Below, piece by piece: positions 8,507 to 32,000 of a DNA stretch of 32,000 nt. The first letter of the stretch is position 1, and each line of letters opens with the position of its first letter. The position numbers and the translations under genes were made by a program. The notes under the pieces are model-generated. The model saw only the letters and a program-made list of their open reading frames with translations, was not told the origin of the DNA and did no database searches. This DNA comes from Alteromonadaceae bacterium (lineage in GTDB: Bacteria; Pseudomonadota; Gammaproteobacteria; Enterobacterales; Alteromonadaceae), in assembly GCA_965277695.1 (NCBI GenBank), contig CBDIDQ010000114.1, forward strand, positions 4,914-36,913. The letters run 5' to 3'.

Positions 8507-9940
8507 ATGAGAAAAATAATTAAAAAGCGTTATTTGCTTTTTTTTGCAGGCTTGTACACGGCAACAATGGTGACAGCAGCACCAAATATAGCGCCTCCGG
8601 AGGTATATGAACAAAATATTGAGTTGCTGGCAGAAGATATGCTCGAATTAAAAGGGTCATCAGAGTCGTTGTTTCAGATTCATTCGCCACAACCGGTGTT
8701 AAATAACCTGCTCGATATATCTTCAACTAATGTCGTTGAATTTAACGGTAAAGGTGCGCTGGAAAAATTTACCCCTGAGTTACAAGCACGGGCTAGTACA
8801 CAAGAGCATTTTATTTCGGTAGAAGACTACTTAAGTGAAGCAAAAGTGCCGACGCTTGCGAGTATGCCGACTACGTTTTCTGACGGTAATGATACGCCCA
8901 ATGAAGCACAGTTAGTGTCACTAGACAGTGGTCTAGCCAACTATTTAACTAAAGAAAATGATCAGGATTGGTATTTTGTTCAGGCTCCGGCAGCAGGGAA
9001 AATGACCTTTTATTTGCAGGTTCCCGGTAGTGCCGATTTAAATTATAACCTGAATGTCTTTCGATTGGATAATGGCGCGTTGGTTGAACAACAGTTTTCG
9101 TCATATCCGGAGCAATTGGGTGAGCAAATTGCAGTAGAAGCGACGGGCACAGACTACTACTTTTTTGTTGTTAGTACGGTAAAAGGATTTAGTACGACTG
9201 ATCCTTACGCCTTTATTGTTACTCATAATACTGATTATGACACTACTGAGCCGGATGATAATATTTGGCAAGCAGCTAGTGAAACAGGCACTCGGATTAT
9301 TAACAAAAATCTCGATAATACCTTTGATGCTGATGTTTATCGGGTGAGCTTTTCCCAAACCACCACTTTTGGTATTTATTTTAAGCCACATGCTGACTTG
9401 CCTTCACAGGTCGATGTACTCAATAGTGCGGGTATTCCTGTGGCGATAGTTACTGACCGCAATATGTTTAGTTTTCCAGCGGGTACTTATTATCTGCGGG
9501 TTAAACAAACGGTTGATGCGGCTTTAACTCCGGCGCAAAGAACCTATAAGTTACATACCTATTTACCTGCGAGCTTAAAGCCGATCACCAATTATTCATT
9601 AGCCAATGAACAATTTAGTGGCCTGTATAAAGTAGAACAGCACTGCATCCGTTTATCGGCATATGTTTATGACGTTAATAATACCCCGGTGCCTTATGCC
9701 AATATTCCGTATCAAGTTTATCTTAGAGGCTGGGATGGCGGTTGGTCTGGAAGATTGCTTAAAGGTACGGTAACCGCTGATGAAAACGGTCGGTTGTCTA
9801 AATCAATAAGACTTAGCTGGACAATGTCACTGGACTACGACATCGATAATTTCTTCTTGTTGGATCCGTCTTATGCCACAGAAGTGCCTTTGTTAGCCAC
9901 TCCATTTATCCATTACTGGACTGGTACTTACGGTTGTTAA
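8507..9940 (+). CDS. Secreted protein with two pre-peptidase C-terminal (PPC)-like domains
   Basis: 477-aa ORF preceded by AAAGGAAA. Signal peptide MRKIIKKRYLLFFAGLYTATMVTAAP. Two segments carry the PPC signature: NDTPNEAQ..ENDQDWYFVQAPAAGKMTFYLQVPGSADLNYNLNVFRLDN and EPDDNIWQAA..DADVYRVSF..GTYYLRVKQ. Confidence 0.8.
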   Translation: MRKIIKKRYLLFFAGLYTATMVTAAPNIAPPEVYEQNIELLAEDMLELKGSSESLFQIHSPQPVLNNLLDISSTNVVEFNGKGALEKFTPELQARASTQEHFISVEDYLSEAKVPTLASMPTTFSDGNDTPNEAQLVSLDSGLANYLTKENDQDWYFVQAPAAGKMTFYLQVPGSADLNYNLNVFRLDNGALVEQQFSSYPEQLGEQIAVEATGTDYYFFVVSTVKGFSTTDPYAFIVTHNTDYDTTEPDDNIWQAASETGTRIINKNLDNTFDADVYRVSFSQTTTFGIYFKPHADLPSQVDVLNSAGIPVAIVTDRNMFSFPAGTYYLRVKQTVDAALTPAQRTYKLHTYLPASLKPITNYSLANEQFSGLYKVEQHCIRLSAYVYDVNNTPVPYANIPYQVYLRGWDGGWSGRLLKGTVTADENGRLSKSIRLSWTMSLDYDIDNFFLLDPSYATEVPLLATPFIHYWTGTYGC

Positions 9941-9996
9941 GTTGCTAATTATTCAGGGTAATTGATGACTTCTTTTAGTCTCAAATAATCGATTTG

Positions 9997-10028
9997 AAGG
10001 AGAAGATGCAAAGGTGCATCGACTCCTT
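9997..10028. terminator. Hairpin between convergent genes (possible bidirectional terminator)
   Basis: AAGGAG-AAGATGCA-aagg-TGCATCGA-CTCCTT. The outer AAGGAG/CTCCTT and inner GATGCA/TGCATC arms pair. It lies between the stop of 8507-9940 (+) and the stop of 10063-10275 (-). The flanking T-tracts are only moderate. Confidence 0.4.
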
Positions 10029-10062
10029 TATTACTCTTCCAATACTTTTAATAGAGGAGTTG

Positions 10063-10275
10063 TTACTGTGGTGTACCGCATCCCCAACGGCAGAGTTGTT
10101 TGTTGCGGCTGCAAAGTGCTCCATCAATGCCAGCATTAACACAAATTTGATAACGCTGGATACAGTCAATCAGACACTCTTCATATGGTGAGTTAGCGTT
10201 TGATACGCCAGACAACATGGCCATGGACATCCCTAGGCCGAGTAAAAAAGCAGAGCGTTTTGTTTTTGTTTTCAT
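10063..10275 (-). CDS. Small secreted cysteine-rich peptide (70-aa precursor, roughly 43-aa mature, 6 Cys)
   Basis: AGGAAA lies 4 nt upstream of the ATG. Signal peptide MKTKTKRSAFLLGLGMSMAMLSGVSNA. The mature part is NSPYEECLIDCIQRYQICVNAGIDGALCSRNKQLCRWGCGTPQ, with Cys spacing 3-6-9-6-3. Confidence 0.6.
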   Translation of the reverse strand: MKTKTKRSAFLLGLGMSMAMLSGVSNANSPYEECLIDCIQRYQICVNAGIDGALCSRNKQLCRWGCGTPQ

Positions 10276-19324: not shown

Positions 19325-22300
19325 TTAACGGTTTCTTCTACGGCGAATAAATGCCAGAGGTGCTAATAACAGCCCCCATAAACCTAAAGCACCACCACTA
19401 GAGCGGTTTTCGACCGTGACATTAATTTGCGTTGCTGCACTGACTTCATCACCATCAAATGCTGTCACACTAAAGACTACTGTGGTATCAGTTGACACCT
19501 CAGGTCCGGTAAAGCTCATAGAAGCACCCGTTTCGGTTAATGTCGCACCGTCTTTTGTCCAACGATAGGTTAAGCTGTCGTTTTCAGCATCAGTGGCAAC
19601 TACAGCTAACATGACATCTTCACCTTCACGAATAACCACGTTTGGTTGTGCAGCAGTGACTACAGGTGCAACATTAGCAACAATCTCCACGACAATTTGA
19701 CTCGCTGAGCTGGTTGCATCACCATCAGATGCAGTAACCGCAAACACCACAGTAGTATCTTGCGATACCGCTGGTGCGGTGAAATTCAATGAAACACTCG
19801 CATGGTCAAGCAACACGCCATCTTTAGTCCAACGATAAGCAAAAGCGTCATTTTCCGGGTCGACGGCACTGACACTGAGCATCACTGACTCTTTTTCTTT
19901 GACACTAACAAACGCTTGATCAACAGTGACTATCGGTGCTCGATTAGCCAGCACAGTCACTGCCATTGTCACCGCTTCACTGGTTTCATCACCATCAGTC
20001 GCAACCACACTGAAAACAACGACTTTATCTTGTGTTAAACCCGGCGCAGTAAAATCATACCAAGCACTATTGTTATCCAATGCCTCACCATCCATAGTCC
20101 ATTGGTAAGTTAATGCATCGTTTTCAGGGTCTACTGCCATCACCGCCAAAGTGGTCGATGTTTTCTCTCGGATACTGATTTGTGCTTGCTCAGTGCTAAC
20201 AACCGGTGCTCGGTTAGCAACCACCGTCAAGGCGATTTCAACCGGCTGGCTGGTTTCATCACCATCGTTAGCCGTTACACTAAAGGTGATCAAAGTATCT
20301 GCTGACACACTCGCTGCGGTATAGTTTAATGATGAGCTATTATTGGCTAAATCAATACCATTTGCCTGCCATTGATAGCTCAACCGATCATTTTCAGGGT
20401 CTGTTGCGCTAACCGCTAACATCACCGACCCACGTTCTTTCACTGAAACCTGCTGTTGCGTCGTAGTCACTACCGGCACCTGATTAGCAATAACGGTAAC
20501 CACCATTTGAATCGCTTCACTGGTCGCTGTACCATCTGAGGCAGTAACACTAAACACCACTTCTTTATCCTGCGAAACAGCAGGGGCGACATATTCAAAT
20601 GTGCTGGCGGTATTTGCAATCAACTCACCATCGATCATCCACTGATACGTGATGTCATCACCGTTAGCGTCTGTGCCATTAACCATTAACGTCAATGCTT
20701 GCTGTTCCTTAACACTGGTAATCCCCTGTTCGGTCGTCACCGTCGGCGCTTGATTGATAATAACCATAATAGAAAATTCGCTACTGCGTGATAATAGCTC
20801 ACCATCAAATGCGGTTACTGAAAAACTATACACTTCATCGCTCGATCCTTCAGGAGCCTTAAACGTCAAAGTCGCACTTGTGGTGCTAACATCAATAGCA
20901 CTGCTGCCGCCGGTTTGCGTCCACTGATAAGTCAAGGTGCTGTTATCATGATCAACAGCATTAGCCGTCAAAGTCACTTCACCACCACCATTGGTGCTAG
21001 CAGGACCTTCAACATTGGTCACCACTGGCTCACGATTTACACACGCACCAACATTAGCCCCAAGTGAAGGAAAAGGAGTCTGTACAGTAGCATTAGTAAA
21101 TCTAAAGTTGTCTATGTTCCAACCCCAGGATGCCACCGAACCATCCGAACCAATACGAAAGCGGAATTTAACCGACTTGTTATTCAAACTGCCAGCAGCA
21201 AACGTTAAGCTTTCTGGACTGATCCACAGGCTTTCAATAATACCAATAAACCCAGCACGACCGGGCAATTCAGGATTGAAATCGGTGATATTACCGTTGT
21301 AACCGTTAAGAAATGAACCGCCGGCAGCAACCACATCAGTCCACTCGCCGCCATCAATACTAATCTCCATAACCCCGCCATCCCAAGGCGTAGTATCGTC
21401 CGGGTTATTTGGATCACCGCGTTCGAAGTCATAATAATGTTCAAATTGAACGGCAAAATCACCACTCGCAGCCACGGTCACCTCAGGTGTGACTAAGCTG
21501 ATATCATTTTGTTGAGATAAGTTAGGTCCAAAACCAACGTTGCCAAAATCAACATCATCAAACACGCCCCACTGCGACAAGAAGTGCTCTGGATCTTCTT
21601 CGCTGTCTACCTGCCTCGTACGTTGCCAGCCCGACCAAACATTGACGCTATCTTCAAAATCTTCAATCTCACGATCATTGCTTAAATCAAAGTTAACATT
21701 CAAGCTCGCGGTCATTGGTTTGCTCAATATCACTTCAGCATCGTCAGACATTAGAGTCACTGTGATTATGACTGTATCATTAGTGTCGCCACTGTTTAAC
21801 GTCGCTTCAATGGTGCCGCTTGTGGTATCACGCCACTGGGCCAAATCGGCAAAATCAATCATGCCGTCATTAGCAAAAGTGATATCGCTATCGCTAGTCA
21901 GCTTAGCTTTAATACCGCTAAGCAATTCAGTACCCGTGTTGTTGATGCTCACTGTCAACAGCCCGGTTTCGCCGACATCTAAAATATTATCTGTATCACA
22001 AAACGCACCGTGAGTGCCATTGTATCGGTTATCCAGCACAATACTGTCCAGCGCCACAGCACGACCAAATGCCTCGAAGCTTTCGACCGTACCGGCATGA
22101 CCTCGGCTTTCAAACGTGCCATCAAAACCGGCATCAAAACGTTCAGGTGATTGGGCTGTTAACCCCATACCGCGCTTAGCAAAAGCGGCACGAATAACCT
22201 GATGATCAGCCGCATCAGTTGCCATTGCCACAGCCAGTAAAGCATCACGAGCTTCGGTAAAAGTCGGGGCAAAAGGTGTCATTTTCATGCTGGCGACCAT

Positions 22301-24370
22301 GTAATCCATCATCCGGCTTTGGGCTTCACTAAAACTCACACCATCACGATTAAGCATCGCCGTATAGGACTCCCATAGCATCAATGCCCAAATTTCACCG
22401 GAGTTATGCACCTCTGAATTCAATGCCCCATCCATATGAAAATCGGCTTGATAAAGATTACTGATGGGGTGAGTGGTAGGTACTTTGACTTGATCTTGAA
22501 TGTGTTTAAAGGTAAACGCATTATGTTCCATATTAGTACTGTAAGGGGCACGACGCAGACCAAAGAAATAGGCAAACTCTACAAAACCGTTGTTAACCGC
22601 ATAACCGCCGTCATTATAAGGAGCTTGCCATTGATCATTACCAACCAGTTGCTGATCGGCTTCACGGGCCATGGTCATTAAAGCAAAAAAGTCACCCCAG
22701 CCCTCGCCCATACTCGCCCCCTGATTATTGGCATACATACCGCCACCAGTTAAACGGCTAGAGATATAATGCCCCCATTCGTGTTCGACAATGGCATTAT
22801 CCACCGTGCCGTCACGAATAGTATCGGTTTGCCAAAGAAACATATGCATACGTGGTGAAGCACCATCCGCAGGTGTGGCCATGGTGGCGTTATTAACACC
22901 AGAGTAGTCTTGCGCCTCAGCACGAAGCACATCGCCGTCAATACCACCACGACCAAAGTTATCGGTCTGGGCGACGCCCGCCACCTCATCAAAACCATGG
23001 TTGTAATAAAGGTCATGCAAATAATTATTGACATAAAACAAGTTCACCGTCGCGGCGTTGATATTTTCGTTTGAATTGACCCTATCATCATGAGTAAAAA
23101 CGTAACCAAAGGTATTAGCACTGGTGGTAGTCGGTCTGATATCGCCCTCGTTAAATCCATCTGGTGCAGACAAGTCAGCGTAAGCATCAACATTGTTGCC
23201 GGTTGTTACTGTCGCGCCAGTTGGCAGCCACGGATCGCTTGTGCTGATACCGCTATGCTCAAGCGTGACGTCATTCATCGCAGCGGGGACTTCAGTCACC
23301 TTATCATTAAAAACCCCGCTCGGATGGGGTGTTAATGCATTACCCATAGGATTATCAAAAGGGGTAAAAGGCGCAGTGCTGTCGGCAAAGGTTTTATAAG
23401 TGAAGGTATCACGTTGTACTAGGTTAGTTCGATTCAACACCTGGCCATCAACAGCGGAGATCACATGGCTGTAAGCAATCAGGTCTTTGCTATTTTTTTC
23501 GCTGATCATCACTTCAACATAATAAGCGGGGATTAAGGTTTTTCTGCCTGGATAATAAACTTTTTTACCCCGGGGTTGTTCAGAAAAAGCGTAATTATCA
23601 CTGCTGGCTTTAAACCGCTGATAATTGGCTTTTTTATCTAGCAACGACAGTTTGACCGCATCGCCAGTAATATTGTTAAAGGCTTTACTGATGGCTTCTT
23701 CGGCAGACAAAGTAAACTGGTCAACTAATGTTTTTTGTGGCGCTGGTAGGTTGGCAAAATAACCACTGGTTGCGACTAATTCCATGTTTTGATTGAGTAA
23801 AACATTCAATTGGCGGCCATACACTTCGATGTCATTAACCTTTTGCTGATATTTGCTGATGATCGATCCGCGTTTATTATCAGAGACATATTTAAGTTCA
23901 GCCTGTTTAAAGCCACTGGCTGACACCCCATGTTTAGCCCCCATGGCATTGACATAACCTCGGGTCGCCTGTTCGATGGCGGAACCGCGATTAAACACAG
24001 AATAGGGTATTGCAGCGGTTTTTTGTGCGCCCTTAGCCCAACTAAAAGTGTGAGTATTTAAGCTGTTATCAAAGTGGTCGCCTTTTGCTGCGAGGTAAAT
24101 CCCCGATCCATTAAGATTGGCGGTAGCTGCGGTGTTGGCTTTCTTTGAAGCAGATAAATTCGCTCGCTGATGGATTGATTTCACCATCGCTTGGGGTTGT
24201 TGTTGTCGGGCTGTTTGAGCAAACTGATCATAGCTGGGCAAGCTAGCTAAAGCGGGTAAAGTTGCTGGGGCTGATAGCGTAGCTGCGCTTGCTACACTAG
24301 AGAGTCCGGTAGCAAACCCGGTAGAAAGTGCAGCAGAAACCGCAGCAGTAATAAGTGTTGTTTTATCCAT
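19325..24370 (-). CDS. Secreted M36 (fungalysin-type) zinc metalloprotease with six tandem Ig-like (PKD-like) repeats and a GlyGly-CTERM sorting signal
   Basis: Long ORF. I prefer ATG 24370 (MDKTTLITAAVSAALSTGFATGLSSVASAA signal peptide, AAGGGA Shine-Dalgarno) over the track start at 24415. The zinc site HEWGHYISSRLTGGG resembles fungalysin HEYTHGLSNRLTGG. Six units of about 90 aa carry the pattern NxAPVVT..V.V.E....L.V.A.D.END.LTYQW..DG......F.AP.VS.D..VVFSVTA.DG. The C-terminus SSGGALGLWGLLLAPLAFIRRRRNR fits the GlyGly-CTERM/rhombosortase signal (Gly-Gly, TM helix, Arg cluster). Confidence 0.9.
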   Translation of the reverse strand: MDKTTLITAAVSAALSTGFATGLSSVASAATLSAPATLPALASLPSYDQFAQTARQQQPQAMVKSIHQRANLSASKKANTAATANLNGSGIYLAAKGDHFDNSLNTHTFSWAKGAQKTAAIPYSVFNRGSAIEQATRGYVNAMGAKHGVSASGFKQAELKYVSDNKRGSIISKYQQKVNDIEVYGRQLNVLLNQNMELVATSGYFANLPAPQKTLVDQFTLSAEEAISKAFNNITGDAVKLSLLDKKANYQRFKASSDNYAFSEQPRGKKVYYPGRKTLIPAYYVEVMISEKNSKDLIAYSHVISAVDGQVLNRTNLVQRDTFTYKTFADSTAPFTPFDNPMGNALTPHPSGVFNDKVTEVPAAMNDVTLEHSGISTSDPWLPTGATVTTGNNVDAYADLSAPDGFNEGDIRPTTTSANTFGYVFTHDDRVNSNENINAATVNLFYVNNYLHDLYYNHGFDEVAGVAQTDNFGRGGIDGDVLRAEAQDYSGVNNATMATPADGASPRMHMFLWQTDTIRDGTVDNAIVEHEWGHYISSRLTGGGMYANNQGASMGEGWGDFFALMTMAREADQQLVGNDQWQAPYNDGGYAVNNGFVEFAYFFGLRRAPYSTNMEHNAFTFKHIQDQVKVPTTHPISNLYQADFHMDGALNSEVHNSGEIWALMLWESYTAMLNRDGVSFSEAQSRMMDYMVASMKMTPFAPTFTEARDALLAVAMATDAADHQVIRAAFAKRGMGLTAQSPERFDAGFDGTFESRGHAGTVESFEAFGRAVALDSIVLDNRYNGTHGAFCDTDNILDVGETGLLTVSINNTGTELLSGIKAKLTSDSDITFANDGMIDFADLAQWRDTTSGTIEATLNSGDTNDTVIITVTLMSDDAEVILSKPMTASLNVNFDLSNDREIEDFEDSVNVWSGWQRTRQVDSEEDPEHFLSQWGVFDDVDFGNVGFGPNLSQQNDISLVTPEVTVAASGDFAVQFEHYYDFERGDPNNPDDTTPWDGGVMEISIDGGEWTDVVAAGGSFLNGYNGNITDFNPELPGRAGFIGIIESLWISPESLTFAAGSLNNKSVKFRFRIGSDGSVASWGWNIDNFRFTNATVQTPFPSLGANVGACVNREPVVTNVEGPASTNGGGEVTLTANAVDHDNSTLTYQWTQTGGSSAIDVSTTSATLTFKAPEGSSDEVYSFSVTAFDGELLSRSSEFSIMVIINQAPTVTTEQGITSVKEQQALTLMVNGTDANGDDITYQWMIDGELIANTASTFEYVAPAVSQDKEVVFSVTASDGTATSEAIQMVVTVIANQVPVVTTTQQQVSVKERGSVMLAVSATDPENDRLSYQWQANGIDLANNSSSLNYTAASVSADTLITFSVTANDGDETSQPVEIALTVVANRAPVVSTEQAQISIREKTSTTLAVMAVDPENDALTYQWTMDGEALDNNSAWYDFTAPGLTQDKVVVFSVVATDGDETSEAVTMAVTVLANRAPIVTVDQAFVSVKEKESVMLSVSAVDPENDAFAYRWTKDGVLLDHASVSLNFTAPAVSQDTTVVFAVTASDGDATSSASQIVVEIVANVAPVVTAAQPNVVIREGEDVMLAVVATDAENDSLTYRWTKDGATLTETGASMSFTGPEVSTDTTVVFSVTAFDGDEVSAATQINVTVENRSSGGALGLWGLLLAPLAFIRRRRNR

Positions 24371-24474
24371 TATGTTCCCTTCGGTGTTACCAATTAAAAT
24401 AAACTGACCTACCACAATATAGCAGTATTATTAGTAAACACAGATTTTTTGCTGGCGGTAATGTTGCAACAAAG

Positions 24475-24578: not shown

Positions 24579-25514
24579 TTAATTCATCACCTTAAGCACC
24601 GCTTGGCGTCGAGCATCACGATTATTAAGAAATACAGTCACAATATTTTCTCGAAACCAGGTCAATCCGGCGTCTTTATCTTGACGCTTATGCCACCAAA
24701 TCGATAACACGGTGTCGGCAACATGGATCGGTGGTTTGGTGATCCACAGTTGTTGGTCGGCCACTTGCGGGTCAATGGTTTCTATCGGTAAGATGGCAAT
24801 CAGATCACTTTGCAAAATCACCGGAATAGCCGAAGAAAAATTATTCACCGTCATCGCCACCCGGCGAGTCAAACCCAACTGACTTAATGCTTCATCGGTA
24901 GGCCCGCTGCTGTCGCCAGACAAGGTGACCAGCAGATGTTCAGCTTGAGCAAAGGCGTCAACGGTTAGTGTTTTTCCGGCCAGAGGATGACCAATACGCA
25001 TCACGCAAACATAATCAATATCGGCTAAATGCGACGAAAAAATATTACTCGGTGGTGCCGGACGAGCACTGAAAACTAAATCGACTTCAGCGTCATCGAG
25101 CAATTGTTGAGATTTACCGATGGTGTAAGGAATGGCATAAAGATTAATGCCCGGCGCATGACGCTGAAAGAATAACCGCATCGACAACCACACACTGTCA
25201 ACCGCCAAATCCGTCAGTGCAACCCGAAAGGTGCGTTGCGCGGTTTGCGGTTCAAACACCTCGGGGCTGATCGCCTGCTCAATCTGATACAGCGGATCTC
25301 TAATCAAAGCCCATAAATCCTTGGCATAACTGGTCGGTTGAATATTGCGGCCATCTTTAACAAACAACTCGTCCTTCCAGATGGTTCGCATTCGGGATAC
25401 CGCATTCGATACTGCCGGTTGGGTCATCGCTAAACGTTCAGCCGCTCGGGTGATTGAACGCTCGGTCATGATATGATCAAAAATCACCAGTAGGTTCAAT
25501 ACTTGAGGTCGCAT
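24579..25514 (-). CDS. LysR-family transcriptional regulator
   Basis: 311-aa ORF preceded by AAGGAAA. The N-terminal winged-HTH signature is LLVIFDHIMTERSITRAAERLAMTQPAVSNAVSRMR. Length and architecture are typical of the LysR family. Confidence 0.9.
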   Translation of the reverse strand: MRPQVLNLLVIFDHIMTERSITRAAERLAMTQPAVSNAVSRMRTIWKDELFVKDGRNIQPTSYAKDLWALIRDPLYQIEQAISPEVFEPQTAQRTFRVALTDLAVDSVWLSMRLFFQRHAPGINLYAIPYTIGKSQQLLDDAEVDLVFSARPAPPSNIFSSHLADIDYVCVMRIGHPLAGKTLTVDAFAQAEHLLVTLSGDSSGPTDEALSQLGLTRRVAMTVNNFSSAIPVILQSDLIAILPIETIDPQVADQQLWITKPPIHVADTVLSIWWHKRQDKDAGLTWFRENIVTVFLNNRDARRQAVLKVMN

Positions 25515-25805: not shown

Positions 25806-26015
25806 TATAACCCCAATTCATTGCCACTTAATTTGCTGTGAACCATCAAAACGCGAATGAATTCGCGTCTACCGCTTGTTTATAACCCCAATTCATTGCC
25901 AGCTTAATTTACTGTGAACCATCAAAACGCGAATGAATTCGCGTCTACCGCTTGTTTATAACCCTAATTCATTGCCAGCTTAATTTACTGTGAACCATCA
26001 AAACGCGAATGAATT
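25806..26015 (+). repeat. Three tandem copies of a 75/76-bp unit, each carrying a REP-like hairpin; the third copy is interrupted by the IS
   Basis: Units start at 25806, 25881 and 25957. The unit is tataaccccaattcattgccagcttaatttactgtgaaccatcaaaacgcgaatgaattcgcgtctaccgcttgtt. The hairpin is ACGCGAA-tgaa-TTCGCGT. The rest of copy 3 (cgcgtctaccg) resumes at 28093, after the IS. Confidence 0.85.
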
Positions 26016-26034
26016 CTGTCTCTTAGTCACATCT
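26016..26034 (+). repeat. IS left terminal inverted repeat
   Basis: CTGTCTCTTAGTCACATCT. Confidence 0.85.
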
Positions 26035-26172
26035 TTATTTGCATTTTTGGCTTGTGTCTGATTCAGCTTAAACTTGTGTCTTATTTAGTATCATTGAAAT
26101 TAACTGTGATATTTCACTTGCTTTTTTTCACCATTGTGATCAAATACGCTTTTTTCACAGGGTGGTCAGTAG

Positions 26173-27618
26173 ATGTTTGAATCCGATGCCGAAAGCTGGG
26201 CTGAAAAAACTTTCGGAAAAGCGCAGTTGAATGACAAAAGAAGAACAAAACGCTTGGTTAAGGTCGCCGCTGATATGGCCGACGGGGCGGGCAAGTCAGT
26301 AGTTAAAGCGAGTAAGGATTCTGCCAGTATTGAAGGGGCCTACCGTTTTATTGAAAATAATTATGTTGATGCGTCAGCCATCGCTCAGGCCGGTTTTGAA
26401 ACAACGGCGGCAGAATGTGCTGAGCGCCGTCTTGTTCTTGCGCTCGAAGATACCACAGGGTTAAGTTATACACATGATGTGTGTGACGATCTTGGGAATA
26501 ATCCGGCAGGCAAAAACCGCGATGTCAAAGGCCGCTCACTTTTCCAGCATTCTATTCTTGCGCTAGATGCAGACACGGAAACCGTGATTGGCTTGGCACA
26601 TCAACAGAATTATATTCGTAGTGAATTACCAAAAGCGTTGAAAGGTTCCGGTTCAGCCCGGGCGCGGCGACCTAAAGAGGAGAAAGATAGTTATCGTTGG
26701 GAAGAATCTGCTGCCAAAATGGACGAAACCTTCATCCGAACTGATAATGTGATTCATGTGTGCGACAGAGAAGCTGACTCATATGAGTATATGGATCAAC
26801 ATTTAAATAACGATAGGCGATTTATTATCCGGTGTCAGCACAATCGAGCGCTTCAATTGCCCAATCATGATAAGACCGTCAAATTAAAGGATATGATAAA
26901 CTTTCCGGTTGCGGCTGAACAATCCCTTAAAATTGAACAAAAAGGGAAAAGTAAAAACACCAAAAATAGACCCGCTCGGACGGCGAAAATGGGCATCAGT
27001 TACCATTCAGTTTCCTTCAAAAGAACACATGACGCCGATAAAAACACCCGAGATGAAATGTCGCTGAACTTAGTGATTTGCCGTGAGCTTGACTTACGCG
27101 GTGAAGCGTCTGATTTATGCTGGTTTTTATACACCAATGAACCAATCAACACGATAGAAGATGCGCAAAAAATTGTTCGCTACTATGAGTTACGTTGGCG
27201 GATAGAAGATTTCCACAAAGTTTGGAAATCAGAGGGTACTCAGGTTGAAAAACTGAGGCTGCAAACCCGTGCCAATACTGAACGCATGGGTACCATTTTA
27301 GCGTTTGTGGCAGTGCGGTTGATGCAATTAAAGGAGATGGCCGAAAATAAAGAAAAAGCCAAACAGCAATCCTGTGAGCTCATGTTCAGTGTGGTGGAAT
27401 GGCAAATGCTGTGGTTGAAAATAGAGGAAAAGAAACTCCCGACAGAACCGCCTTCCATTTTTTGGGGTTATTATGCATTGGCGAAACTGGGCGGCTGGCA
27501 CGATAGTAAAAGGACAGGACGAGTGAGTACGAAAACTATTTGGGAGGGTTGGGCGGCGTTAATGCTGATGCTTGATGGACACCGAACCATGACAGAAAAC
27601 ATTGCCCTATCAGGATGA
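26173..27618 (+). CDS. IS4-family (Tn5/IS50-like) DDE transposase
   Basis: 481 aa, against 476 aa for Tn5 Tnp. The N-terminus, WAEKTFGKAQLNDKRRTKRLVKVAADMA..GKSV...IEGAYRFIENNYV, parallels Tn5 WAKSVFSSAALGDPRRTARLVNVAAQLA..GKSI...QEGAYRFIRNPNV. It also has ALEDTTGLSY (first DDE Asp region) and YYELRWRIEDFHKVWKSEG (YREK region, compare Tn5 YSQRWRIEEFHKAWKTGAG). Confidence 0.9.
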   Translation: MFESDAESWAEKTFGKAQLNDKRRTKRLVKVAADMADGAGKSVVKASKDSASIEGAYRFIENNYVDASAIAQAGFETTAAECAERRLVLALEDTTGLSYTHDVCDDLGNNPAGKNRDVKGRSLFQHSILALDADTETVIGLAHQQNYIRSELPKALKGSGSARARRPKEEKDSYRWEESAAKMDETFIRTDNVIHVCDREADSYEYMDQHLNNDRRFIIRCQHNRALQLPNHDKTVKLKDMINFPVAAEQSLKIEQKGKSKNTKNRPARTAKMGISYHSVSFKRTHDADKNTRDEMSLNLVICRELDLRGEASDLCWFLYTNEPINTIEDAQKIVRYYELRWRIEDFHKVWKSEGTQVEKLRLQTRANTERMGTILAFVAVRLMQLKEMAENKEKAKQQSCELMFSVVEWQMLWLKIEEKKLPTEPPSIFWGYYALAKLGGWHDSKRTGRVSTKTIWEGWAALMLMLDGHRTMTENIALSG

Positions 27619-28065
27619 ACAACGGTCAAATATTAGAGGATGTTCCTCAAAATACACACAAAAAGTGGACAGTCTAGCAGCGACGGACTTGAACTGATGA
27701 TTCTGCCTGTAATTAATTTAGCGCTGATCATATAACATCATCTGGCAATCATCGGCATTGAAACGGTTAAGTATGAAAAAGGAACTATCGCCAAAATTAA
27801 AATTGGAAATCCTCACCGACTTACTCGTATTGGTGTGCATCACTAAGGCTCTGCGCCACTGTACAAGAGCCTGCTCTCTAAAAGGTAATCACAATCATTT
27901 GATATTACCGCCTTTTTAGGGGGCGCGACGGCTCTATGTTTCGATAAAATGTAACAGCACGTAGCAACGCCCACCTTTTGTAGATAAAAAAGATAATGCC
28001 CAAATTTATTCGCAAAATCAGCAATTACGCTAAATAGTGACAATCAAATTTAGATAGTACCATTA

Positions 28066-28084
28066 AAGATGTGATCAAGAGACA
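28066..28084 (-). repeat. IS right terminal inverted repeat
   Basis: The plus strand reads agatgtgatcaagagacag; its reverse complement is CTGTCTCTTGATCACATCT. Confidence 0.85.
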
Positions 28085-28265
28085 GAATGAATTCGCGTCT
28101 ACCGTAAATTTTAAAAACCCTAATAATCATAGAGATAGCTGAGGTACATGTCAATGCTACAACCGCCTAGCGGCAAAGTTATTTGATAAAGAACTATCCA
28201 GACGTCTAAATGGCTGTTATAGTCATGACAACTTATCATTCTAGACGGCTAGACGGACACCAATA

Positions 28266-29267
28266 ATGGCTTTGGCATTACAACAAAAAATTCGCCACCC
28301 TCATCAGGGGGTTTATCTTTTTGGCACCACACCACCAAAATCCGGGCTTGATGATGCCCGGGTAGAAGGCATCGCCCATAAGTTGCTGAGTCGGTTACAG
28401 GGATTGCAAACCGATGGTTTGATTATTTATGACATTCAAGATGAAAGCCGCCGAGTATCAACACCTCGCCCTTTTCCGTTCAAACAAACCATTGCCCCCA
28501 CCGATTACAGCCAGCTATTACAGCGCTTGTCTGGATTGGATGTGATCACTTATAAAAGTGTCACCCAACGCAGTGCCGGCGCATTTAAACAATGGCTCGA
28601 CAACAGCCAACAAAGCGCTCAGCTAGACAATATCGTATTGGTGGGCAGTCCTTCCTCTGACGGTGAGATAAAATTGAGCTTGCCCGATGCCTGCCAAGTG
28701 ACACGCACAGATCACAGCAAAGTGTTTTTAGGGGGGGTTACCATCGCTGAACGCCATAGCAAAAAACGCAACGAACACCGCCGATTATTGGAAAAAACCA
28801 AACAAGGTTGTCAGTATTTTATTTCTCAAGCGGTTTACGATACCCAAGCCACCATTGATTTGCTCACCAGCTATGCACTGCTCTGCCGTCAGCAAAATAT
28901 TAAAGCCAAACGGGTGATCTTGACGTTTACCCCTTGCGGCGGTGAAAAAACCCTCACGTTTATGCAATGGCTGGGCATTTCAGTGCCACAAGCCGCCCAA
29001 TCACGCATTCTGAGCGCCGACAGCCCGCTTGATGAATCGATTGATATTTGCCACCAAAATCTTAAACACATCCTCAACAGCTGTGCCCATTTAGATGTGC
29101 CGCTAGGTTTAAACATTGAAAGCCTGACCAACCGAAAAAGCGAAATAGAAGCATCAGTGAATTTATATCAATTGCTTAAAACCACCATGGAGAATCATTT
29201 AACCCTGTTGAGAACAACCGAAGCCCAAAATGAAATAGATACTGTGGATGAAGTTTTAGCCGCGTAA
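28266..29267 (+). CDS. Methylenetetrahydrofolate reductase (MetF/MTHFR)-fold family protein
   Basis: 333-aa ORF. By-eye matches to E. coli MetF blocks: [10 protein letters not shown] vs FEFFPPRT; IVLVGSP vs [38 protein letters not shown] vs [59 protein letters not shown] vs IIPGILPVSNFKQAKKFADMTNVRIP. Confidence 0.65.
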   Translation: [333 protein letters not shown]

Positions 29268-29367
29268 ATGTGCGGGTAATAATAACCCGCGCTTATTCTA
29301 TATTGGTCAAAACCGCGTTTGTGTATTAAATTAACTTCATCGTCCTTGGTTAATCGCCACGCTTGAG

Positions 29368-29742
29368 ATGGATTTTATGAATAACACAACGCAACAAACC
29401 CAACTGTTTCTTAAAATGACTCAGCAGTCAGGTAATCGAACACTGATCAGCGCTTTTGATGATTTTTTTAACAGCGATATTGACAATAAACATGTGATCT
29501 TAAAACGTTCGATTGTTTACTTTTATGATAAACACACCATAGTCAACTCCCTTCCCTGCCAACAAGCCACCGCCGACGACAATATTTATACCTTTGATGG
29601 TGAAAAAGTCGCCCGGGTTGCACCACAGTTTTTTCTCGGCAGTGCCGCACTGATGGCCAGCACCGCAGCCTTTAGCGCCGGTGCTGCCAATAACAATAAT
29701 AACAACAACAATAATAACAATAACGGCAACAACAACGGTTGA
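29368..29742 (+). CDS. Hypothetical protein ending in a hydrophobic segment and a poly-Asn tail (candidate radical SAM substrate/precursor)
   Basis: 124-aa ORF; ATG 29368 or 29377, with no strong Shine-Dalgarno. The C-terminus is ..APQFFLGSAALMASTAAFSAGAANNNNNNNNNNNNGNNNG. The stop lies 6 nt before the next gene's ATG, and all flanking genes share its strand, which suggests one transcription unit. Confidence 0.5.
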   Translation: MDFMNNTTQQTQLFLKMTQQSGNRTLISAFDDFFNSDIDNKHVILKRSIVYFYDKHTIVNSLPCQQATADDNIYTFDGEKVARVAPQFFLGSAALMASTAAFSAGAANNNNNNNNNNNNGNNNG

Positions 29743-29748
29743 TATCCT

Positions 29749-30585
29749 ATGGAATTTATACACATAATCAATGGGTTAGTTACCCTGATAACCGTCATCT
29801 TATTTTTCAAACAAAGCCGTTTGTTTTTCAACAGTCGGCGCAAACACCGCAGCCTATCGAACGCACCACTGCTTAGCGCAACAGCCGAGGTCGGAGATTA
29901 CGTGCAATTTCACGGTCATTTGGTACTGACGGCAACAGAAACCCCTTTTGCTAAACAAAAATGTGCTTATTGGGGCGCAACAGTACGGGCTGAGTTCACC
30001 ACCAAAAAACCCAGACCCGCTAAAGGGATGCAAACCCACCAGCCTGTGATTTACAAAAAAGACCGAGATGATTTGCCTTTATTGGTCGCTGATGATCAAC
30101 TTACCGTGCAGCTGGGATTTACCAACAATATTGCAGTGGTCCTCAATTACCAGACCAAAGAAACTCGCAGCAAAATCCCACCATCAGCCGAAATCGCCGA
30201 GCTAGCCAAACCAAAATACCAAACCTATGTAGTGCGAGAATCCTGGTTACCTCAAGATACCCCGATGGCATTGTGGGGCATCATAGACAGCGCCAATAAA
30301 AACTGTATTACCCTGGCGGGTGCAAAAGATCAGCAAGAAAGTAAACAGCAACCCGCTTTTGCCTTTCATGGTGAAGCCAGTCAATTATTGGCTCATTTTG
30401 TTGCTAAACGAAACCAGTCAATCGAAATGTTAATCGCCATCACCATTCTCGTTGCCAGCCTGTGGAGCTGGATGCCGCAGGTATTACACGATGCAGTCAC
30501 TGGCGTATTAGCCATTGCGTCACTGGTACTGTTGTTAATAGGTCACCATGCCAGCCAGCAAATGCCTTTTGATGGCTATAAATAA
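29749..30585 (+). CDS. Membrane protein (N-terminal TM helix, soluble beta-rich middle, two C-terminal TM helices); possibly GIDE-like
   Basis: 278-aa ORF. TM segments are IINGLVTLITVILFF, MLIAITILVASLWSW and VTGVLAIASLVLLLIG. From memory, the segment after TM1 (EVGDYVQFHGHLVLTATETPFAKQKCAYWGATVRAEF) resembles the start of bacterial GIDE-domain proteins. That assignment has low confidence. Confidence 0.65.
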   Translation: MEFIHIINGLVTLITVILFFKQSRLFFNSRRKHRSLSNAPLLSATAEVGDYVQFHGHLVLTATETPFAKQKCAYWGATVRAEFTTKKPRPAKGMQTHQPVIYKKDRDDLPLLVADDQLTVQLGFTNNIAVVLNYQTKETRSKIPPSAEIAELAKPKYQTYVVRESWLPQDTPMALWGIIDSANKNCITLAGAKDQQESKQQPAFAFHGEASQLLAHFVAKRNQSIEMLIAITILVASLWSWMPQVLHDAVTGVLAIASLVLLLIGHHASQQMPFDGYK

Positions 30586-30596
30586 GGAAGATCAAC

Positions 30597-32000
30597 ATGA
30601 CAGCCCCAGTACTATCAACAGCAACAGCCAATAAGTTCATTCACCTATTATATGCACCGACCAACTTTTGTAATATGGGCTGCAAGTATTGTTATTTAGG
30701 CACTGGCACCGAAGAAAAAAACCTTGCCAGCCAAGTGGTCAGCACCTTAGAACATGCCATCAAGCAGTTTTTGGCCGAAGATATCATTCCCTTTAACCTA
30801 TCTTTTCATGGCGGCGAAGCCACTTCAATTCCACCAGCATCACTGGCAGAATTATTCAGCTTTTCAAAAAACTACTACCAACAATACGGCCCGCAAATCA
30901 AGCAGGCAGGATACCCACTCAACCCCATTCACATCAAAACCAACCTGTTCAATTTCGACCGCTTATATGAGTTGTTTGATCAATATGAAGTATCAATTAG
31001 CGGCAGTGTTGATTTGCCGTTGTTCTTACATGAAAAATATCGCACCGATAAACGCGGTCGTTCGACATTAAAGCAGATCAGCAAAAACCTCAAATTATTG
31101 GCTGATTACCCCCATCACAAAAAAATATCCTGTGTGGTCACCCAAGAGCATTTGCGCCATCTTGGACCAATTTATCGCCGATATCAAGTATATTCACTAC
31201 GATATTGGCCTAGATATGAGCAAGTTCAACATCATGTTTGCTTTTGACAGCAACAAAAACAGCGAAAAATTTGGCGAGAAAATCACTGGCACTGAGATGT
31301 TGACTCAAGCCCAACAAGTGGCATTTATATCGGGGCACTAACACGGCTGAATTTAGTGGTACAGAGTTGGAAGCGGGTTTAAAACAGCATTGGTTCAAAG
31401 AGTTCACCCCGGAATTTTGTTGTAGTGCGGTAAACTGTGGTGATAAGTTCTTTTTATTGCAGAGTAACGGTGATGTTTATGCCTGTCCGAGGGGTCAATC
31501 TTCCCGTGATTTCTTTTATGGTAATGTATTTAAAAACCCCATAACGACTATTTTGGCCAATGGCTGGCAAACCATTGAGGCATTAGAAAACCGCCTAGAT
31601 GCCGATGAAGAATGTTTCAGCTGCTCATATTTACCCTATTGTAATCAGGGTTGTGTATTTGTTCGCGATCAAACCCGCTTGACCAAAAGCTATACCTGCC
31701 AATTGCAAAAAGAATTATACCAAGACAACCCCGAGCGATATCCCGCTTATGATGATCAGTACATCAAACAGTACGCCGCCAAATACAAATATCGTAATAG
31801 TATTCAAAGCTTTAAGGCCAATGAAATTGAAACCGTCAAACCCAGTTATATCACCCCAGAACTGTATGAAGATGAAAACTCACTGTCTGCACTGATAGCA
31901 GCCGATGAAGTGCTGCAACATATTTATTCTGATGATATGTTTGTCATCGAAGTCGATGGCGTTGATTACACCGTCGCCAGCCCAATATTGCAAAACAGCA
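30597..32000 (+). pseudogene. Radical SAM / SPASM-domain enzyme (peptide-maturase-like), interrupted by two +1 frameshifts; 3' end beyond the window
   Basis: GGAAG precedes the ATG. Frame 0 carries HLLYAPTNFCNMGCKYCYLG (CxxxCxxC) and LSFHGGEAT. The sense reading moves to frame +1 at the CCC run 31141-31143 (..ISCVVT | KSICAILDQFIADIKYIHYDIGLD..). It moves to frame +2 at the GGGG run 31332-31335 (..QQVAFISG | TNTAEFSGTELEAGLKQHWF..). Frame +2 then stays open to 32000 and carries a SPASM-type Cys cluster: FCCSAVNCGDKFFLLQSNGDVYACPRG ... ECFSCSYLPYCNQGCVF. Confidence 0.8.

Follow-up and report, generated by a model that had tools for sequence, protein, structure and literature searches.

A widespread radical SAM/SPASM cassette with a candidate poly-asparagine-tailed protein substrate, present as a degraded copy in an Alteromonadaceae genome

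Radical SAM (S-adenosylmethionine)/SPASM maturases are a main source of new peptide and protein chemistry. Here, we describe a three-gene cassette built around an enzyme of this kind, located at the end of a 32,000-nucleotide stretch of DNA from an Alteromonadaceae bacterium (assembly GCA_965277695.1, contig CBDIDQ010000114.1, positions 4,914 to 36,913 of the forward strand; hereafter "the window", numbered from its first letter). The cassette encodes a small protein ending in a run of asparagine (Asn) residues, a membrane protein, and a radical SAM/SPASM enzyme. Judged from gene content and conservation, the best explanation is that the window holds a degraded copy of this cassette, whose enzyme probably modifies the Asn tail of the co-encoded protein. 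A broader reading, put forward tentatively, is a new class of radical SAM modification on oligo- or poly-Asn C-termini, whose enzymes would be marked by a SPASM domain together with an orphan C-terminal domain and would work both in the bacterial cassette and in Campylobacter Mu-like prophages, there maturing the tip of a tail fibre.

All three genes of the window cassette lie on the + strand. The first (29368-29742) is an open reading frame (ORF) of 124 aa that ends in AANNNNNNNNNNNNGNNNG directly before its stop codon (29740-29742); the tail proper, NNNNNNNNNNNNGNNNG, which is the presumed site of modification, is encoded at positions 29689-29739. In the product of this ORF, a conserved N-terminal domain (~95 aa) is followed by a linker rich in Ala, Gly, and Ser and then by the tail N12-G-N3-G. 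The second ORF, memA (29749-30585), starts 6 nt past this stop and encodes a 278-aa membrane protein in which a Kyte-Doolittle scan finds three hydrophobic segments (residues 1-22, ~224-246, and 244-269). The third gene (30597-32000) starts 11 nt past the memA stop and encodes the enzyme; it carries two +1 frameshifts and is cut by the window end. An earlier, sequence-only reading of the window had described four same-strand ORFs with short gaps—i.e. these three and a methylenetetrahydrofolate reductase (MTHFR)-like gene upstream—and had named among their products a poly-Asn-tailed protein of 124 aa, a protein with three transmembrane (TM) segments, and a radical SAM enzyme with a SPASM Cys cluster. 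The positions and strand of the four ORFs hold, as do these three descriptions, the last with both PF04055 and TIGR04085 scoring above cutoff.

Specifically, the translated N-terminal part of the enzyme contains the CX3CX2C motif of the radical SAM [4Fe-4S] cluster (FCNMGCKYCY, Cys25/29/32; 30669-30692, + strand), and this fragment matches the PF04055 Radical_SAM model at 33.2 bits (cutoff 29.5). In a set of 25 orthologues these three cysteines never vary, and over 98 their conservation is at least 90%. Further along, in frame +2 of the same strand, lies a SPASM Cys cluster of the form CC-x4-C-x15-C ... C-x2-C-x5-C-x3-C-x14-C (31418-31699), whose cysteines are invariant or nearly so among the 98 orthologues and which, going by its motif, would bind two auxiliary [4Fe-4S] clusters. 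The SPASM model TIGR04085 (cutoff 27) scores 43.6 bits over window positions 31313-31999 and 41.4 bits for an intact orthologue (P0001). The SPASM motif opens with an invariant Cys-Cys pair (residues 264-265 of P0001; ~31418-31423 in the window). By spacing, one Cys of the pair appears to correspond to an auxiliary-cluster ligand position of the anaerobic sulfatase-maturating enzyme (anSME), and the additional Cys beside it could serve as a further ligand or donate a hydrogen atom.

When a repaired translation of the enzyme was used as query, the search returned 383 homologues (protein clusters) of ~600 aa, sharing 50-80% identity and originating from very different bacteria; mean column identity reaches 56% across 98 enzyme sequences. 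The AlphaFold2 model of the enzyme has a mean pLDDT (predicted local distance difference test) of 92.3, and its closest solved structure is anSMEcpe (4k36, E 2.6e-15), followed by CteB, ChlB, SuiB, and SkfB, all of which are protein or peptide maturases. The enzyme also carries a strongly conserved, family-specific C-terminal domain of ~200 aa, which is beta-rich and in which certain His, Asp, Glu, Arg, Lys, and Tyr positions are invariant. Modelled separately, this domain reaches a pLDDT of 92; Foldseek finds no match to its fold at E <=1e-3 in PDB or BFVD, and a sequence profile search of PDB likewise returns no match. The radical SAM core begins at about residue 10, and Pfam and NCBIfam detect no match in the enzyme to PqqD or to a recognition element (RRE) of peptides synthesised ribosomally and modified post-translationally (RiPPs).

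The distribution of the family was surveyed in 185,579 species genomes, one per species. Relatives of the enzyme occur in 161 of these, spanning about ten phyla, and 80 loci were fetched from the 161 relatives. Taxa represented include Gamma- and Betaproteobacteria, Myxococcota, Campylobacterota, cable bacteria, Geobacterales, Bacteroidota, Spirochaetota, Cyanobacteriota/Sericytochromatia, and Fibrobacterota, with cultured members such as Psychromonas ossibalaenae, Pseudoalteromonas luteoviolacea, Thiothrix caldifontis, Trichlorobacter thiogenes, Archangium violaceum, and Chitinilyticum. The sequence-only reading had asked whether the Asn-tailed ORF is conserved beside orthologues of the enzyme, and we find that an adjacent same-strand ORF with an Asn-run end is kept in 77 of 81 distinct loci, the window included. 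Of the remaining four, two lie at the end of a contig and two are broken up by genes inserted into the locus or by a transposase-like ORF. The coupling between tail and enzyme is strict.

Clustering of the neighbours within 6 kb yields only three conserved families per locus, in two arrangements. In type A loci, which include the window, the enzymes are at least ~50% identical, and the gene for the small protein is joined by those for a membrane protein of ~270 aa and for the enzyme, the order running either way. In type B loci, the enzymes are 40-46% identical; the gene for a two-TM protein of ~166 aa comes first, the enzyme gene second, and the small-protein gene last. The four-gene system proposed in the sequence-only reading is therefore upheld in part: the enzyme, the Asn-tailed protein, and the membrane protein are conserved together, whereas the MTHFR-like gene occurs as a singleton. 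The conserved neighbours in the 80 loci include no RRE, protease, exporter, or sulfatase family. A neighbour cluster labelled "response regulator" (18 loci) was rejected as a heterogeneous mix of common signalling domains. As a side observation, the cassette of Candidatus Electrothrix scaldis (CP138355.1; locus L084, 11607-13504) sits just upstream of P-II/ammonium-transporter genes, with several toxin-antitoxin pairs further downstream, a context not seen in the other neighbourhoods inspected.

That the enzyme might belong to a well-described family with a known substrate had also been raised, and no such family fits. The best NCBIfam match of the intact orthologue is TIGR03942, the anaerobic sulfatase maturase, at 84.1 bits against a cutoff of 349 (56 and 39 bits for the window fragments); DynA, AmcB, PapB, GrrM, and DarE follow, all far under their own cutoffs, and only the generic SPASM domain model passes. 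In PADLOC, the enzyme (residues 13-71) resembles viperins only at the generic radical SAM level (E 3.6e-5). It is extremely improbable that the enzyme is an ordinary anSME, or another described SPASM maturase, and that the small ORF is a low-complexity artefact. Although anSME is both the best NCBIfam match and the best structural match, its model score is far below cutoff, the enzyme has an extra conserved 200-aa domain, no sulfatase is conserved nearby, and the Asn-tailed ORF is retained in nearly all loci.

The small proteins are 110-160 aa long and share a conserved N-domain of ~95 aa, a variable linker, and an Asn run at the extreme C-terminus. Tails have a median of 15 Asn, from 6 up to 32, and 70 of 72 end in Gly; the usual type A tail is N10-13-G-N3-G and the usual type B tail N11-19-G, a Gly interruption being sometimes present. 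Summed over the 72 tails, the Asn codons are 574 AAC and 492 AAT, and the window tail likewise uses both AAT and AAC. This pattern points to selection at the protein level and speaks against slippage of the DNA. The N-domains of the type A and type B proteins are homologous (hhalign probability 97%, E 8.6e-11). Moreover, an exhaustive phmmer search with a tail-less N-domain as query recovers 15 small proteins, and all 15 have an Asn run plus Gly. A whole-database protein search with the small-protein alignment gives nothing at E <=1e-3, which most likely reflects the limited reach of the word index where proteins are short and divergent; the exhaustive search did recover relatives.

Many type B small proteins (e.g. 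the one encoded at 9782-10216 of locus L074) have a TM-like stretch (LVMLGTAGLLLxMPG, Kyte-Doolittle 1.9) and a Lys/Arg-rich patch ahead of the Asn tail. This arrangement suggests a tail-anchored association with the membrane. Type A linkers are non-hydrophobic in most members.

Besides the enzyme and the Asn-tailed protein, the cassette always encodes a membrane protein, and this protein comes from at least three unrelated families. The first of these, memA, has homologues in 32 type A loci. It is laid out as an N-terminal TM segment, a ~200-aa soluble domain with the basic motif W-x-TK-x-KKP-x-KGMET, and two C-terminal TM segments, and the positive stretch that follows the first TM segment suggests that the soluble domain faces the cytoplasm. 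This TM/soluble domain/TM architecture is like that of GIDE-domain proteins; the GIDE model (PF12483) gives weak matches in 4 of 32 memA members (best E 4.8e-5) and no match in the window protein. A whole-database protein search with memA returned only the query itself. By hhalign, memA shows no homology to the type B partner memB, and a third protein, memC, shows none to either. Pfam, NCBIfam (release 20), PADLOC, and PHROGs assign no name to the small protein or to memA and memB, and no description of the cassette was found in the openly searchable full-text literature. The sequence-only reading had likewise recognised no described family with a poly-Asn-tailed precursor.

More distant relatives may extend the pairing of enzyme and Asn run to viruses. 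The predicted viral contig UViG_3300029664_000120 of IMG/VR (locus L087, 6001-9139) encodes an enzyme that shares 39% identity with the family. The next ORF specifies a protein of 128 aa with the ending ...GGSSSN14R, and after it comes a zinc-ribbon protein of 333 aa that has two TM segments (memC). The N-domain of this 128-aa protein has no detectable similarity to the small-protein N-domain of the family (hhalign), and memC is unrelated to memA and memB, so that enzyme and tail are the only constants.

Full-length homologues of the intact orthologue, including the orphan C-terminal domain, are also present in phrog_1802 (34% identity, E 1.5e-45), whose genes sit in the tail modules of Campylobacter Mu-like prophages. 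In these modules, the tail-fibre gene is followed, in this order, by those for a conserved protein of 211 aa, the enzyme, a tail-assembly chaperone, and another fibre. We examined seven such loci, six from a viral scan and one from Campylobacter phage CAM-P21 (MW462221.2, 26302-31199). In all seven, the tail fibre two genes upstream of the enzyme ends in small residues followed by 2-4 Asn and one further residue (...STNNNNY, ...GATNNNNY, ...GSSNNNNY, ...STGNNF, ...SMGNNS, and ...SSGNNF), and the distal domains of these fibres are of three dissimilar types. The small-protein N-domain has no homology to the tail-fibre C-termini or to the phage 211-aa protein (hhalign). Three of the prophage loci also have a small hydrophobic ORF after the enzyme. 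In all lineages, nothing stays constant except the enzyme and a partner protein whose C-terminus is an Asn run followed by one residue.

The copy of the enzyme gene in the window is broken. Using the Psychromonas ossibalaenae orthologue as query, tblastn splits it into three parts that are read in frames +3, +1, and +2 and share 73-86% identity with the query, and compared with orthologues, +1 insertions near 31161 and 31322 move the reading frame from 0 to +1 to +2. The first frameshift (31159-31164) consists of one extra base, with CATCTTGGAC standing in place of CAT-TTAGAT, as seen in a DNA alignment with two orthologous loci and at the tblastn junction. The second (31320-31342), resolved by DNA alignment and frame translations, combines one extra base at ~31322 with an in-frame extra codon at ~31338, and a TAA stop in frame +1 (31339-31341) lies within it. 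The gene reaches the window edge at about residue 469 of ~597, and most of the family-specific C-terminal domain lies past it. As sequenced, this copy cannot yield a SPASM-containing enzyme. Programmed frameshifting was rejected, because the gene is one uninterrupted ORF in the orthologues and the window copy would need two +1 events in succession. The remaining long genes of the window are intact, up to 1,696 codons, and the two shifts therefore look like local decay of the enzyme gene and not like a generally error-prone assembly. Assembly error may still be their source, since an exact-sequence look-up placed the window on a single 40,212-bp contig and found no independent assembly of the region.

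How the intact cassette might work can be proposed as follows. The C-terminal domain would take the place of the missing RRE and dock the partner protein, allowing the Asn tail to thread into the enzyme active site. There, the 5'-deoxyadenosyl radical would remove hydrogen from the C-alpha or C-beta of Asn, with several positions or the terminal Asn-Asn-Xaa unit as the probable targets, and the auxiliary clusters would finish an oxidative change, which could be a cross-link, a dehydrogenation, or an epimerisation. Since the last residue is variable (G, R, Y, F, or S) and the phage seems to manage with two Asn, the Asn residues themselves are the likely reaction site. The membrane protein would anchor, receive, or act on the modified protein, or serve as an effector; its role is likely generic, given that unrelated membrane proteins fill the slot in other lineages.

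The poly-Asn protein could instead be a partner of the enzyme—i.e. a scaffold, regulator, chaperone, or aggregation-prone tether—in which case the target of the enzyme would be the membrane protein, a lipid, or some small molecule. We regard this as unlikely. It would agree with an N-terminal part that is conserved and domain-sized, and not a short leader, with the lack of a conserved RiPP protease or exporter nearby, with a tail free of the classical SPASM cross-link residues, and with the TM-like stretch before the tail of many type B proteins. However, the enzyme and the Asn tail alone stay constant while N-domain and membrane partner are both replaced across lineages, the constraints on length and composition of the terminal homopolymer suit a reaction site better than a tether, and the closest structures and hidden Markov models all belong to peptide or protein maturases.

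Several points weigh against the tail as substrate of the enzyme. Co-location alone is no proof of an enzyme-substrate relation. The Asn run lacks the Cys, aromatic, and Lys residues of known SPASM cross-links, so the chemistry would be without precedent, and reaction at the terminal residue itself is unlikely, as this residue differs between lineages. A conserved protease or exporter, which would be expected for a released RiPP, is absent near the 80 loci. The broken enzyme gene means that the window copy may be non-functional; no sigma-70-like site was found in 29293-29367, and any promoter of the window cassette is putative. Lastly, the fibre Asn runs are short (2-4), and the prophages come from AT-rich genomes and are related, so they are not independent samples; for this reason, the link between the prophage enzyme and an Asn-ended tail fibre is only suggestive.

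Upstream of the cassette, the MTHFR-like gene (28266-29267, + strand) is an ORF of 333 aa. Its earlier description as an MTHFR-fold protein needs qualification: PF02219 reaches only 18.1 bits against a cutoff of 24, while the product is a clear homologue of PDB 3ijd (E 9e-67), deposited as an uncharacterised protein. Directly 3' of the gene lies a terminator-like, GC-rich hairpin with a T-rich tail (29270-29292), and a 100-nt gap separates the gene from the cassette. Further upstream, an IS4/IS50-like insertion sequence (IS) element (26003-28098) lies between the MTHFR-like gene and a LysR gene (24579-25514). The element has a transposase ORF of 481 aa (26173-27618) and ends in 35-nt imperfect inverted repeats (26003-26037 and 28064-28098) that contain CTGTCTCTTAGTCACATC, which we take to be close to the Tn5 end sequence. 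Before the insertion, the LysR gene would have been divergent to the MTHFR-like gene and not to the cassette, and the two probably formed a unit of their own.

The MTHFR-fold enzyme and the LysR regulator could in principle act in the same pathway as the cassette, as a four-gene system, and their closeness in the window and the strand shared by the MTHFR-like gene and the cassette are what such a reading would expect. It is nevertheless very improbable: no MTHFR-like gene lies within 6 kb of the enzyme in any of the 80 related loci, hairpin and gap set this gene apart from the cassette in the window, and the LysR gene, once proposed as the cognate regulator, is beyond the IS insertion and is not conserved in the 80 loci, so that this proposal is not supported.

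Elsewhere in the window, a 1,696-aa ORF (19325-24415, - strand) has an HExxH motif (HEWGHY) and about six tandem repeats of ~90 aa. Its C-terminus, with a Gly-rich stretch, a hydrophobic helix, and RRRRNR, resembles a sorting signal of the GlyGly-CTERM/PEP-CTERM type, and the product is probably a large secreted or surface metalloprotease.

As to biological role, the cassette could be a mobile conflict module—i.e. anti-phage defence, superinfection exclusion, or a toxin—with the membrane proteins as effectors switched by the modified or unmodified Asn-tailed protein. This idea is compatible with the tail as enzyme substrate. The patchy spread over about ten phyla, with a very conserved enzyme, resembles horizontal transfer, and a constant enzyme core whose membrane partners are exchanged is a typical trait of defence systems. 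Some copies reside in prophages or on a predicted viral contig, the window copy has an IS element next to it, and toxin-antitoxin genes are found near the Electrothrix copy. Against this, PADLOC gives no match except the generic viperin-like similarity, the neighbourhoods inspected are mostly housekeeping genes and not defence islands, and the location of the Campylobacter prophage gene inside a tail-fibre module suggests virion maturation. Overall, we consider a conflict module quite unlikely.

By analogy, reading the enzyme as a RiPP or cofactor maturase is reasonable. A recognition region and a core next to the maturase, as in RiPP systems, would be represented by the N-domain and the Asn tail in 77 of the 81 loci. 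The partner is a protein of 110-160 aa with an N-terminal domain and not a short peptide. To our knowledge, all characterised radical SAM/SPASM maturases use Cys, aromatic, Lys, Glu, Thr, or similar residues; a family tied to a homopolymeric Asn tail, if the reading is true, would represent chemistry without precedent. The family is large (383 protein clusters, 161 species), highly conserved, and widely transferred, and three or four new protein families are defined here—the Asn-tailed protein, memA, memB, and the enzyme C-terminal domain. The phage link, if real, would be an example of a radical SAM enzyme that matures a virion protein. The apparent inactivation of the window copy makes it a poorer working example and leaves the value of the family unaffected.

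Among known systems, anSME (TIGR03942; 4k36) is similar in having the radical SAM core followed directly by a full SPASM domain with two auxiliary clusters, in lacking an N-terminal RRE, and in acting on a protein substrate. By contrast, the enzyme described here is ~230 residues longer, with its conserved orphan C-terminal domain, and its partner protein has no Cys/Ser-X-Pro-X-Arg motif and is not a sulfatase. The cyclophane maturases (AmcB, GrrM/OscB, XyeB, YhhB, and FxsB) and the darobactin and dynobactin maturases DarE and DynA also combine a SPASM domain with the lack of an RRE, and adjoin a precursor with a repetitive or low-complexity core, as is the case here. Their models, however, score about 30-81 bits, far below cutoffs of 310-650 (80, 63, 46, 52, and 30 bits for the five cyclophane models, in the order given, against 425, 310, 450, 445, and 370). 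These maturases need aromatic core residues, of which Asn/Gly tails have none, and their precursors are short peptides, unlike the domain-sized Asn-tailed protein.

MftC, acting on MftA, is a further SPASM enzyme whose chemistry takes place at the extreme C-terminus of a ribosomal precursor. Its model scores 37 bits, with the cutoff at 265. MftA has Val-Tyr as its last residues and depends on the RRE protein MftB and on downstream enzymes, whereas the tail here is a homopolymer, its last residue varies, and no further enzymes are conserved. Proteusins and other RiPPs with long, nitrile-hydratase-like leaders (e.g. polytheonamides) have a long, domain-like leader, an Asn-rich core, and iterative modification by radical SAM enzymes; the proteusin epimerases have no SPASM domain. 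Unlike in proteusins, the small protein of the cassette has no Pfam or NCBIfam match, and no methyltransferases or other tailoring genes accompany the cassette. The uncharacterised phrog_1802 differs in lying inside a tail-fibre module without a small Asn-tailed protein, its likely partner being a tail fibre of 296-689 aa that ends in 2-4 Asn plus Tyr, Phe, or Ser. As such, a SPASM maturase with a co-encoded substrate is a known kind of system, while a homopolymeric C-terminal Asn tail on a domain-sized protein would be new as a substrate class, and the orphan C-terminal domain of the enzyme and the obligatory yet interchangeable membrane partner are new as well.

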